A stretch of 20,000 bases of DNA, from NCBI GenBank assembly GCA_000934665.2, contig JYFJ02000400.1, positions 118,008-138,007 of the forward strand. Direction: 5' to 3'. How positions within the stretch are numbered: the stretch's first letter is position 1; each line of letters opens with the position of its first letter. The stretch is from Catajapyx aquilonaris. Its lineage: Eukaryota. The notes beneath the pieces are model-generated. The model ran no database searches. It worked only from the letters and a program-made list of their open reading frames with translations, and was not told the origin of the DNA. The translations under genes were made by a program, and so were the position numbers. Of the stretch, positions 293 through 11,054 are shown piece after piece.

Positions 293-770
293 TGTAACGG
301 TATACCCGTTACCCCACTTGTCCTCCCTTCTTACAATGCACCCTGCCTAAAACAGCCCATCTTACATACCACCCTGGAATATCCATCCTATCCCCTATTT
401 ATTGCCCTCCACCTTTCAGTCCAATTCCTGCCCCTACCTCCCATAAAAACCCTCCTTCAGTGAATGACACCCTGTTTGTCCAACTACCCAACGAGACCAT
501 CCTCTCTTGACCTCGCCACCCTCCTTCTTCTTGACCACCCTCTTGCTTTCCCCTGCCTTTTTGAAGCAGTCTGGATAGCAACCTCCTCCAGATGACACCC
601 ATATTCCTCCTCCTGCACCTACAACATCCCCCGTACATCCTCCCTCGATCTACATTGTAATTGTTTATCTTGCCTCAATACATCAGTTATTCCATTACTA
701 TTGACTCCCCTTATTCATTCCTCACACCCCCGTGACACTTCCCTCCTGACTTGACGTAATAAGTGTTACA
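293..770. mobile_element. 478-bp insertion, probable solo LTR (Gypsy-like), inside the ABCA exon
   Basis: Starts TGTAAC (293), ends GTTACA (770), flanked by the 4-bp direct repeat ATAC (289-292, 771-774). Removing it plus one TSD copy restores VVILTSHS. No coding capacity. An AATAAA lies on the minus strand at 398-403. Confidence 0.8.
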
Positions 771-774
771 ATAC

Positions 775-787
775 TCACCTCGCACAG
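775..787 (+). CDS. ABCA3: ABCA NBD2 exon, 3' remainder after the insertion (L-T-S-H, the H-loop)
   Basis: C|TC ACC TCG CAC AG|gtactg completes ILTSH(S). The donor GT at 788 joins in phase 2 to the acceptor before 876 (AG+C = Ser). Confidence 0.85.
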
Positions 788-5366: not shown

Positions 5367-6076
5367 ACTAACAAGGGAACGGTCAGGGTCGAGAACCTCC
5401 GATTTGGTTGAAACTGGCTTGAGGGGTCATTTATGCGCGATAGACACAGTGGTGAAAGTGTTATCTCGCAACGTCCAGCCGTTTCCGAGATATGAGCGAC
5501 AGAAACATCCGAATTTTGGCCGCGCGCATTTGCCGGGAGCCTCTCTGCCAGCTCCAAATCCCTTCTACCTTGATTCCCCCCGCCCCCTTTACCCACTCTT
5601 CGATCCCACACCACCATCCCCCACTCCCCCACCAACATTTTCGTTTTCCATAGTTTCTTTGCTCCGGTATTTATTATGAGTTTTCCCATTACCCATTACC
5701 CAATTTTAGGTATAGAAGCTCTTTCTTCGCAGTTGACAGAAGCGAAAGAAAGCAGCTTGATGGTCTCATAAAATACCGGAGCAAAGAAACTATGGAAAAC
5801 GAAAATGTTGGTGGGGGAGTGGGGGTTGGTGGTGTGGGATCGAAAAGTGGGTAAAGGGAGCGGGGGGAATCAAGGTAGAAGGGATTTGGAGCTGGCAGAG
5901 CGGCTCCCGGCAAATGCGCGCGGCCAAAATTTGGATGTTTCTGTCGCTCATATCTGGGAAACGGCTGGACGTTGCGAGCTAACACTTTCACCACTGTGTC
6001 TATCGCACATGAATGACCCCTCAAGCCAGTTTCAACCAAATCGGAGATTCTCGACCCTGACCGTTCCCTTGTCAGT
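5367..6076. mobile_element. Foldback/MITE-like element with ~310-bp inverted arms
   Basis: 5367-5680 is the reverse complement of 5765-6076, with about ten substitutions and a 2-nt indel; 84-bp spacer. The mirror-image ORFs in the track (5287+/5689-, 5210-/5805+) reflect this symmetry. Confidence 0.85.
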
Positions 6077-7282
6077 TTGGGACCTGGAAGGTCCAAATAC
6101 CAGTGCTCAAGGAACCCACCTAGTTTTCTTGGTATGAGCTAGCTAGGGGCGGACCCGGGGTCGTCACACTCTTCATCATCCAGGATTCACATCATGCGTT
6201 TCAATCATCAAAAGGTCTGGATATAAAGGCAACAATAAATTGAGTCGACGGAAATAATATTATTGACTTTATTGTCGTTTATGCCACACAAGCACGTGGT
6301 TATATATTCGTTATAGAAGATAGACTTTCAGACTTTTCCTCTTTAAAAAAAACAAACGAAAAAGTCCTATATGGAAAGGCTCTGTCCATCGTTGGACAGA
6401 CGTAGGCTATCGGCGCTGGTATATTTTAATTGCCTTCTCTCTCTTTTTGTTGATGTTTTTATAGGCTACTGTGATAATTTCTTGAAACAGCAGAGAAGCA
6501 AGTTTTTTTTGCAAGATTGTAAGCATCCAAGCTGAATGCTGTTATCAAGTGGATTATTAACAACAATGTTGGAGCTTGATAATTAAATTGTTGGCAAAAA
6601 TACTCATAATCTTTATTTGTGGACGTAAAAGAACCTGTTGACAAATTTCAGGTGGTCCTGTTGTGTGTCTGCTCAAGATTGCATGCGTCAGGTTAGTGGC
6701 AGTCATTATTATTTTCCATTCTTCTATTCAACCTCACGAGTACAACAAAGCATGAAACCTTTGCATTGTCCCGAGTAATATTTTATGAGTCTGTAGGCCT
6801 ACTTGTATGTCACATTAGACTGTTGGAGCCTTCAAGGTTGAAGTCCGGTACCAGTTGCTTAACATTTAATCAGGGATCAGAAGTGTGTAATTAATGGGTA
6901 AGTTGAATAATGTGGCAAGTGCATGTCTTTGAATGAGATTCAGTTAGACTAGATTGATAAAAATTGCCAGATCGTTTGGTACAAGAACGAGAATCAACGC
7001 CCTGGGTGACACCCGCCTTCTGCCCTTCACAGGTAATGACAAACTTTGACTTATTGTTTGCAATTAGCCTACTACACAATGGCATATATCGAGTGTAGGC
7101 CCTATATGGGTTCAAATTTTATGAACGAACTTCCGACTGGAACTGTCTTTTGCCACTATAGCAAAATACCGTTTACCAACCTCTTGTGAAATACTGCGGA
7201 TAAGTGACTTTCCATGCTTGTTGTTACCTCAGGTGGCGATATGCTGGCAAAAAGAAACATTGACACAAATACACCATGGAAA

Positions 7283-7304
7283 TAGTCGTCACATGTGACG
7301 ACTA
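7283..7304. repeat. Perfect 22-bp palindrome
   Basis: TAGTCGTCACATGTGACGACTA is its own reverse complement. Confidence 0.9.
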
Positions 7305-8603
7305 AGATTTATTGATCAGTTTAATAGCCGTGCAATTTCAGATGCACAAAGACTGTGGTACTCCTCAATGATAATTATTATAAGTTAGTCTTATTTTCCT
7401 GGTCCAGAAATTCTTATTTGTCGACGAAACACCTTGCAATACAATGTGACACGTATGGCCAGCCCTGCTCACACCCCACTCCCCACACGGTACATCTGAC
7501 CAAACCCTGCCCATATAGATATTAAATATCTATGACCCTGACTGACACATCGCATTGCTTAGCCCTCATAAAAATAATGTCTGTAAACGAGCCGTGAAAA
7601 ATATAAATCGGGTCGGGAAAACATCAATAACTCACTCAGAATAATGTGATGGATATATCTAACCCCAACACTGTGCCAGATAGCTCCTAATGGATCGTTA
7701 GGAGCCCTTTTAAAGTGTGCTAACGATTTGTAAGTAGCTATCGAATAGGTCATTTTGTTGGTGCAATGACGCATAAGAGTGTGTAAAATCAGAAAATATT
7801 TATGACGTAGGACACTGCGCGTTTGTGAATTCAAAAGTGCAATTAGATAAAATATATTGGCCAAAAATAACCTTACTATTGTTCTAAACTCATATCTCGA
7901 GAGTGGATGGAGCCGTGTATATATACGTAATTATAGGTAACGCCCTTGGACGAGTATGGGGTATGTGGCTGGCAGAGTGAGACCCAGTGCAAAGGGCGTA
8001 AATTTCCGAAGTGAAGGTGCCACCTCTTGGATCTTTCGGCACCAAGTGCTCCACATATTGATGGCCATAAGTCACCATTATTCTGGTGGCAGTACTTTGC
8101 TGAAACCCGCACTTCTCCTCTGGCTACGGCGCAGTTTGCAAGTGTGGCGTATGCCTCCCGATAACAGTGCCTCCCGATAACCGTCAAGCAGAGTCCTGCG
8201 CCAAGTGAACCGAGCAAATGGGGGTGACTTTAGATGAGATAGAAAGGTTACTTCATGGGGCAGAAGAACGTATAGCAAATAGGATGAAGGTAGAAATGAC
8301 GAGACTACTACAGTCATGTGTAGATTTAGGCCTACCTGTACAGAAATTGTTGCACAGGTATGGTGTCCTTTGCATCTCTTTATGTTCTTAATTTTTGAAG
8401 TTGTCCTTTTGCACACTGACGTTGTGATTTATTCTCCCTACAGTTTTAGCTATATAGGGAGAAATGTCTTGGTGTGTGTGTGTGTTGTGTGGTTTTCCTT
8501 CGCTGTCATATGTTCAAAGCAGGCCTATAAATTGTTGAAGATTTTGCACTTCCCGCATTTTTTTTATCCCACTTTTTGAGAATCTCCCTCCCCCAATGTA
8601 TCT

Positions 8604-9539: not shown

Positions 9540-11054
9540 ATGCCAAGAAGGAAACAGCCTCAAAGCCTGAGGCTCATGAGCCTGAGCTGCCTGACCAGCG
9601 CTGTGCTACAAGCCTGCAAGAGGAGCAATGGCCACAATTAGGATGGGATTAGTCAATTTGTCCATGGCATACCCAGGGTGTTTGCAAGCGAATTCGTATT
9701 GAAGACACTCAAGTTGTACTCAGAGGTAGAAGACAACAACTACAGCATTAGGGAAGCATTGCATCCTAAATGCACCAAGATAACAGCAGAGGATGGAAAG
9801 GGACTTGTGACACTTCCATCACATTGTTACAGCCAGTTGTTCACCAATCTTCATGTTATGAATGAGCTGCAAGTTTTTAACACATACTACGAAGGGACGG
9901 ACAGAACCACTAACAATGTGTTAAGATCTCTTCCATATGCAAACCTGCCCAATCTCCGTGAAGTTTGCATAATACTGCTTTCACGCACCCAGCACCTGGA
10001 GCAGTTGGCTGAGCATTGCCCACTCCTGGAGGATGTGACGATTGACGATGCCCTCCTGACACATGATCTTCGAATTCTCTCAACCTGCAGCCACCTTAAA
10101 AAAATTGATGTTGTTTTCCTTCAGCCTGATGTTGCCATCCACCTGCTTGAGAACCTGCCCAGCCTGGAATGTTTGAGCATTGACCACGTGACCGAAGTGT
10201 TGCCACTCTGCACAAGGATATATCCCTTGAAAAGATTTGCTTCATACATGATACCGATGGACTCCACTCACTTACCAAGGCTCTTGTCACACTTTCCTCA
10301 TCTTGTAGAGCTGAATCTGAGCATGGCCAGTGGCACAGATCCAAGCCCAATTAACAATCTCCTAGGTCTTAAACGCTTACAAATAAGAGGAGGTACAGCT
10401 TCCAGTCTTGTCTGCCTGATAGAATCGTGCATGGGTCGTCTGTCAGAGTTGCATTTGATCAATGTCACCAACCTTACTATTTTGTTCTCACTACAGTTGA
10501 ACATTCATGGCCCATCAAAGCTCAAATCCCTGGAAATTTCAGGATGCACTGGAATTAACCTGGCCACCATTGGTGAATTATTTCCATACATAGAGTCTCT
10601 TGAGTTATATGGCAATGGATTTATTCATCTTGCTCCTTGCCAAATGATGGTGAGATCTGCTTTTCAATCACTTGAACGATTGAAGATAACTGAGAGGGTG
10701 CCAATGGATCAAGCCAAATATCTGTTGTCAGCATCCAGCCACACATTAAAGATTCTTAATATTCATAACTTCTCCAAAATTTCGATTGCATGGGATCTGC
10801 TGTCTGGAGTTAGACTGAATAAGGAGTTACGTGAAATCTTCATAACGGACAGGGAGATGACAAAAGATATAATTCCAAAGATTTTGGCTGTATGCGGAGA
10901 TAACCTGGCAAGGGCAATGGCTCATGGTAATAATTTGGAATTGTCAGAAGATGAAGTTTGTGCATTGGAAAGTCAGTTGCAACCATATGACATGGTTTTT
11001 GAAATCTGGAGGCGGTATGGATTGTGGTATATGCATAAGGATAACCATGACTAA
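9540..11054 (+). pseudogene. Leucine-rich-repeat protein with N-terminal BC-box/Cul2-box (PRAME/ZYG11-like CRL2 receptor architecture), single coding exon, 504 codons with one internal TAG
   Basis: GCCATG at 9540 reads MPRRKQPQSLRLMSLSCL...GHN*DGISQFVHGIPRVFASEFV, in frame with the 458-aa track ORF (GTG start at 9678). TAG is at 9639-9641. Repeated RNI-like LRR units: LPNLREVCI, CPLLEDVTI, CSHLKKIDV, LPSLECLSI, FPHLVELNL, LLGLKRLQI, KLKSLEI, FQSLERLKI. Confidence 0.75.

Follow-up and report, generated by a model that had tools for sequence, protein, structure and literature searches.

Transposons lodged in exons are reportedly spliced from the message through cryptic sites in several organisms, as in the Ds and dSpm alleles of maize, the 412 element in the vermilion gene of Drosophila and Tc1 in C. 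elegans. Introners are transposons whose insertion gives rise to an intron (PMC9860276; PMC12130899), and introner families carrying one or both splice sites have been described (PMC9860276). One introner family of Aureococcus adds 12 bp, and four residues, to the product (PMC9860276). Approximately 82% of the classified introner families derive from cut-and-paste DNA transposons and approximately 12% from LTR elements, and solo-LTR introns are described in Panicum virgatum (PMC12130899). In the same source an introner family is defined by at least four similar introns in different paralogy groups, by similarity that reaches the intron edges and by checked splicing; its main text names no arthropod host, and its supplementary datasets may list more hosts (PMC12130899).

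The ends of an element are informative about its class. Ends of the form TGTNR mark the LTRs of Gypsy elements, and they are also found in the Ginger DNA transposons, which make 4-bp duplications, carry inverted repeats of 40-270 bp and insert at CCGG/CCGT or RTATAY targets (PMC2836005).

The window analyzed here (the whole stretch of 20,000 nucleotides) contains a 478-nt insertion within a coding exon of an ABCA lipid-transporter gene, which the first-pass annotation had read as a candidate transposon-born intron. The evidence presented below indicates that a mobile element did insert here, into an exon that had been continuous, and the account of the locus that we consider probable is that a young, probably segregating, gene-sense LTR-like insertion truncates one of several ABCA paralogues.

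A mobile element in an exon of an ABCA transporter gene

The gene enters the window at its left edge and ends at position 2070. Its parts were assigned as follows.

1 to 292, + strand: partial coding exon of an ABCA-type ABC transporter (open frame 1 to 297), extending beyond the left edge of the window
775 to 787, + strand: rest of the interrupted exon, with the end of a Leu codon, T-S-H (including the H-loop His) and two bases of a Ser codon
788 to 875, + strand: authentic 88-nt GT..AG intron, donor CAG/GTACTG, spanned by two contigs of run X5 (joint 293 to 874, 10 letters between, side 78)
876 to 1104, + strand: next coding exon, (S)...MDEHQ, an open frame continuous with the ...TSHSMEE motif of homologues
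1105 to 1911, + strand: putative 807-nt GT..AG intron, donor CAG/GTAACA, acceptor tract with 14 of 16 pyrimidines
1912 to 2070, + strand: last coding exon, ABCA1-like C-terminal R1 regulatory domain, with the TAG stop at 2068-2070

The first of these exons encodes part of the second nucleotide-binding domain, with the signature, Walker B and the D-loop; the exon extends as far as GQVVI and one base of the Leu codon that follows. It is open in frame 1 from base 1, and the frame ends in ...GQVVIL at a TAA stop (295-297). Pfam recognized ABC_tran in this exon (E 8.1e-09) and R1_ABCA1 in the last coding exon (1912-2067, E 4.5e-06). The exon was 61-66% identical to ABCA3-like proteins of insects, and the nearest proteins in the search were ABCA3-like proteins of insects and bivalves, with 48-66% identity among the ten best matches. 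When longer and similar-length proteins were searched with the transporter exon, no match exceeded 71% identity. The order of the domains, an ABC ATPase domain followed by an ABCA1-like C-terminal R1 domain, together with the closeness to ABCA proteins, places the gene in the ABCA subfamily. The remainder of the gene in the window was intact, with open exons and canonical splice sites, a state which fits a very young null allele and a still-functional spliced allele alike.

Two repeats were observed in and beside this gene. Inside the putative 807-nt intron lies a very high-copy repeat at approximately 1464-1617 (core approximately 1508-1551), whose depth in the DNA contigs was 5700-7600 at 1464-1540 and 1900-2500 at 1541-1617, compared with approximately 40-50 for single-copy sequence. 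Many different flanks start at 1508-1511 and 1543-1551, and the repeat is possibly a conserved core, belonging to a SINE or a miniature element. Just 3' of the transporter stop codon, at 2408-2507, a perfect (TAT)10.7 run is immediately followed by a (TAA)23.3 run.

The insertion was analyzed with Logan contigs from runs X1-X3, three DNA runs that share one sample, and from run X5 of another study; the contigs were compared with positions 1-2300 of the window. The element and its duplicated target were delimited as follows.

289 to 292, unstranded: left copy of the target-site duplication, ATAC, as read in the window
293 to 770, + strand: 478-nt multi-copy element, TGTAAC...GTTACA, found as a separate contig with exactly these ends, in the same sense as the gene
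771 to 774, unstranded: right copy of the target-site duplication, ATAC; in each of X1, X2 and X3 a flank contig has 771 as its first base

Base 293 and base 775 are both T, which may be a coincidence or a fifth duplicated base. The element was recovered as one 478-nt contig in X1 (depth 359) and X2 (depth 405) and as two pieces in X3 (depths 364 and 488), and the single-copy contigs beside it (771-904, 1009-1426, 1517-1972 and 1984-2300) had depths of 38-59. The depth of the unit is 7-10 times that of the flanking contigs, which indicates approximately 7-10 copies. In the DNA contigs the family was sharply bounded at T293 and A770, and the start of the flank contig at exactly 771 suggests a branch point there. 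There was no second copy of the element within the 20-kb window, and a search of metagenome contigs with the exact 23-nt element end gave 0 matches. Highly similar family copies in the same genome, which belong to the definition of introners, were represented by the multi-copy contig and by a further copy with another flank in X5. The copy in the window differed from the majority sequence of its family at 3 of the 478 positions (565, 567 and 577), and the insertion is most likely young.

The uninterrupted site was present in the same DNA sample. A 55-nt contig joined 288 directly to 771, skipping 482 nt, with 5 ambiguous letters at the joint and 25 letters on either side. Its depth was 16.5 in X1 and 14.1 in X3, and X2 was without it. 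A stretch that is multi-copy, sharply bounded at 293 and 770, flanked by a target-site duplication and missing from an empty-site form in the DNA is a mobile element inserted into an exon that was once continuous, as the earlier annotation had supposed.

Several features of the element point to an LTR. It begins with TG and finishes with CA, has the TGTNR pattern and has short inverted tips (TGTAAC at 293-298 and GTTACA at 765-770), as expected of a Gypsy solo LTR; the same holds for a duplication within the 4-6 bp range (ATAC) and for an empty site that has a single copy of it (joint 288 to 771). A 506-nt contig of X5 carried a copy of the element (293-714, with 4 differences) behind 84 other letters, and of the last 20 of these foreign letters 15 were purines, like the polypurine tract that precedes a 3' LTR. 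The motif scan added one further candidate feature.

677 to 682, + strand: AATACA, which may act as a variant polyadenylation signal for the LTR; the X5 contig with the element copy ends at 714, approximately 30 nt on

Any role of this hexamer in polyadenylation is tentative at best. From the one copy, its ends and the one foreign flank in one run, we infer that the element is likely the solo LTR of a Gypsy-type retrotransposon that lies in the gene sense and belongs to an expressed family. Beyond the purine-rich 84-nt flank of the single X5 copy, no interior sequence and no full-length relative with gag-pol was seen in the contigs.

A non-autonomous cut-and-paste DNA transposon, for instance a miniature Ginger-like element, would also have a 4-bp duplication, a TGTAA terminus and short inverted ends. 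Ginger elements do have TGTNR ends and make duplications of 4 bp (PMC2836005), and transposons of the cut-and-paste kind predominate among the classified introner families (PMC12130899). However, the inverted ends of the present element amount to 6 nt that are perfect at the tips, within a 9-nt pair at 89% identity that is the longest terminal pair, whereas the inverted repeats of Ginger run to tens or hundreds of bases; the duplicated ATAC is neither of the targets used by Ginger (PMC2836005). The composition is also strongly asymmetric between the strands, with 182 C and 48 G among 478 bases (C 38%, G 10%), which is ill-suited to a foldback miniature element, and the X5 copy stands behind a purine-rich run, as a 3' LTR would. 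We consider a DNA transposon unlikely on these grounds, and the solo LTR remains the preferred identification.

Two other classes were considered and rejected on the basis of the sequence and the features of these families: a SINE, because the element has sharp TG..CA ends and has neither a tail nor a tRNA-like head, and a Helitron, because a duplication is present and TC..CTRR ends are not.

Further repeats and reading frames were recorded elsewhere in the window. An inverted repeat at 5367-5680/5765-6076 has 314-nt arms that are 95.9% identical and 84 nt apart, is foldback-like and has long stop-free frames on both arms; the one arm reading frame that was scanned (5689-6138, - strand) had no Pfam match. 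A second inverted pair (16811-16947/17869-18005; 137 nt, 97.8% identity, approximately 920 nt apart) may represent the ends of another mobile element. A stop-free, intronless frame of 470 residues (9642-11054, + strand) gave a sub-threshold Pfam match to leucine-rich repeats (E 0.00099, 19.5 bits with a cut-off of 27). Five neighbouring open reading frames had no match in Pfam, and Rfam had no family in the window.

The empty site, the paralogues and their messages

The interrupted gene has a small number of close ABCA paralogues. There were at least three other forms of the exon at 90% identity or more, two of them in the X1-X3 DNA sample and one, with 7 differences, in X5. One exon version in the DNA sample had 14 differences in 147-293 and a depth of 80-84, and another, at a depth of 12-17, read GTAT at the insertion site (V-V-V-F-T-S-H-S). 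The ten differences listed in 177-256 included seven at third positions, two synonymous CTG-to-TTG changes at first positions and two that change a residue (229 and 250). Differences that are mostly silent are as expected for functional paralogues.

This abundance of related exons raises the question of whether the occupied and the empty form belong to two paralogues of recent origin rather than being alleles, or whether the join itself is an artefact of assembly. In that event the interrupted copy would be an inconsequential pseudogene, a duplicate that no longer works. The close exon forms just described are in accord with such a reading, as are the exon bins, which stood at 2-10 times single-copy depth, and the window's differences from all of the contigs at 915 and at 565, 567 and 577. 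But the shape of the empty-site contig speaks against separate loci. A contig of 25, 5 and 25 letters appears to be the expected output of a k=31 graph for an empty site with flanks identical to those of the occupied form. Its depth of 14-16.5 is close to half of the single-copy 38-52, as for a heterozygote, and contigs broke at 293 and 771 in an independent assembly, which argues against an artefact of the window's own assembly. We read the near-half depth of the empty site as coexistence of the occupied and empty forms in the sample, most simply as alleles. The paralogue or artefact reading is therefore regarded as improbable, and the insertion is probably still segregating, with both forms in one DNA sample.

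The positions that are private to the window are of two kinds. At 915 it has T where all of the DNA contigs have A, a synonymous change at a third position, and the differences at 565, 567 and 577 are clustered within the element. The runs and the window may derive from different individuals, or these may be private changes.

The record of run X5 is silent on whether RNA or DNA was sequenced. The run was taken as RNA-like because its contigs join across the 88-nt intron, because it had depth in 14 of the 30 bins and because the repeat at 1464-1540, so abundant in the DNA, had a depth of only 6.5. Two X5 contigs joined 293 to 874 through 10 exon letters, which are letters of 775-787, and thus correspond to normal messages that read VILTSHSMDE. 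These contigs come from uninterrupted copies, with 14 and 7 differences to the window over 147 positions; a further X5 contig had 15 differences over 20-176. Paralogues of the gene are expressed normally. The window's own version of the exon was absent among the X5 pieces listed. No X5 contig covered 771-847 and none of the joints listed was 293^764 or 293^876; contigs drop rare forms, so that this result speaks neither for nor against splicing.

Candidate splice signals and the probable fate of the interrupted allele

The proposal that the element can be removed as an intron depends on three short features.

294 to 295, + strand: candidate 5' splice site GT, at bases 2 and 3 of the element, context ACT/GTAACG; no junction observed
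762 to 763, + strand: candidate 3' splice site AG, 7 nt short of the element's right end, context ATAAG/T; no junction observed
295 to 297, + strand: in-frame TAA, met at once if the element is retained, at which the open frame 1 to 297 ends

The arithmetic of the first-pass annotation held up. The donor GT, the acceptor AG and the branch-like words CTGAC (746-750) and TTGAC (751-755), 9-14 nt before the AG, are all where it had placed them. A script confirmed that removal of 294-763 (470 nt), together with the authentic 88-nt intron at 788-875, leaves a stop-free frame that reads ...GQVVILVTILTSHSMDE... and retains the H-loop with four additional residues. The additional 12 nt consist of 7 from the element and 5 from the duplicated site, and they encode VTIL. 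The sequence likewise bears out the second claim, that removal of 294-875 (582 nt) is in frame: CT is joined to C-ATG to give GQVVIL-MDE, 12 nt shorter than the uninterrupted form, and TSHS is deleted. Only one other in-frame pair was found near the insert by script, with its GT at 270. Six cuts of 482 nt are possible (starts 289-294), and the one at 294 alone opens with GT but closes with CT; in agreement with the earlier statement, no GT..AG pair restores the exact empty-site sequence. The acceptor had been called weak, as an AAG, and it does have A at -3. The stretch before it, which the annotation had called pyrimidine-rich, has 9 pyrimidines among the 16 bases upstream, a poor tract that is equalled or bettered at 36% of the AGs in the window.

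The strength of these sites was then compared with chance. Of its nine positions, the donor ACT/GTAACG agrees with the U1 consensus at 4. On a crude frequency matrix that serves only as a yardstick it scored -2.41, the two authentic donors of the gene scored 0.35 and 2.94, and on the same yardstick 28% of the 1115 GTs in the window scored as well or better. The AG at 762-763 would, as an acceptor, define an exon of 24 nt. When 2000 shuffled versions of the element were placed at this site, 46% offered at least one in-frame, stop-free GT..AG pair; for 2000 pieces of 478 nt taken at random from the window, the share was 72%. The reversed element had 8 in-frame, stop-free pairs at this site. The proposed splice sites and their in-frame pair are at chance level. 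Furthermore, the GT at 294 is present because a TGTNR terminus supplies it as its second and third bases; in the one genic copy, GT falls on bases 2-3 of the element and AG 7 nt inside its right end.

The predicted products were compared with ABCA homologues of at least 1000 residues, 119 of 120 of which fit the motif pattern used to measure how many residues separate the Walker B/D-loop motif from the H-loop. This spacer was 23 residues in 116 of the 119, 22 in two and 21 in one. It is 23 in the empty-site form and would be 27 in the proposed spliced form, a spacing found in none of the 119 (0/119). The form without TSHS has lost the H-loop histidine, which ABC ATPases need for hydrolysis. 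An ordinary old intron was also considered as an explanation of the stretch and was rejected, because the exon is continuous in the 119 matched homologues and in the empty-site form of the DNA.

If the element were nevertheless a nascent intron, the spliceosome would remove it from GT 294 to AG 763, adding VTIL, or to AG 875, without TSHS, so that the allele would be partly functional and could become a fixed intron. Both pairs are in frame and stop-free, branch-like words lie 9-14 nt before the AG, and the remaining gene is intact. Precedents exist in the introners that add 12 nt and four residues (PMC9860276) and in the solo-LTR introners (PMC12130899), and these make both an LTR origin and a +4 product compatible with a working intron. 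On the other side are the poor donor, the acceptor with its A at -3, its thin tract and its 24-nt exon, the frequency with which such a pair arises in random inserts, a spacing that the homologues do not have and an alternative form without the catalytic histidine. In addition, a sense LTR carries its own signals for ending transcripts. Taken together, these points make a nascent intron distinctly unlikely. More specifically, that a polymorphic solo LTR is already being spliced from the ABCA message through its TGTNR GT, yielding the +4 or the H-loop-less isoform and representing an LTR-born intron at the segregating stage, is less likely still.

The explanation that we favor is that of a disabling insertion. 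A Gypsy-type solo LTR of a family of approximately 7-10 copies would have integrated in the same sense as the gene, with a 4-bp ATAC duplication, into an exon of an ABCA3-like transporter gene, the one encoding the strand that leads to the H-loop in the second ATP-binding domain. The insertion would be recent and still segregating, in a gene that is one of a few close paralogues which themselves appear to be expressed normally. The default outcome for the occupied allele would be loss of function, since a retained element would lead directly to the TAA at 295-297, and an LTR in the gene sense could end transcripts early. Transcripts of the occupied allele would be subject to retention, early polyadenylation and decay. 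The GT at 294 would be a by-product of the TGTNR terminus that integrase requires, and the AG at 762-763 a chance dinucleotide, so that splicing through this pair would be possible but inefficient at best.

Comparison with introners, spliced insertion alleles and solo LTRs

On present evidence this locus is an ordinary young transposon insertion, most likely disabling one copy of a multi-copy transporter gene. Were it spliced, it would be a rare view of an animal gene gaining an intron with the empty allele still present, and its source would be an LTR, which is less common than a DNA transposon among classified introner families (approximately 12% compared with 82%; PMC12130899). It is also a cautionary case. 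A GT at the second base is inherent to TGTNR-ended elements, and an in-frame GT..AG pair will be found around an exonic insert approximately half of the time by chance.

The description of the element as an intron or introner-like sequence in the first-pass annotation found no support, given splice sites at chance level, a +4 spacing seen in 0 of 119 homologues and the resemblance to a solo LTR of an expressed family. Like introners, it is a multi-copy element with a target-site duplication in a coding exon and a GT at its own edge, and the predicted product would gain 12 nt and four residues, as in the Aureococcus family (PMC9860276). Unlike introners, it is represented here by one copy in one gene, its sites are at chance level and its acceptor lies inside the element behind a poor tract. 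Because multi-copy status was the only introner-family feature found, the element is not filed as an introner.

The insertion alleles of maize, Drosophila and C. elegans offer a second comparison. Their spliced products were reportedly proven by cDNA, whereas those of the present allele are predictions. In each case, as here, there is said to be a single exonic insertion allele with a chance GT and AG, the removal of which is imprecise and gives an in-frame, altered message.

The closest match is with Gypsy-type (Ty3-like) solo LTRs. The assignment differs from the usual one in that it was drawn from one copy and one foreign flank, rather than from paired LTRs, a primer-binding site or gag-pol. 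In other respects the element has the characteristics of this class: its TG...CA ends are of the TGTNR form (PMC2836005), its target duplication is 4 bp, it is a few hundred bases long and exceeds single-copy DNA in copy number, and its family is represented in an RNA-like run, where a purine-rich tract stands directly ahead of the element.
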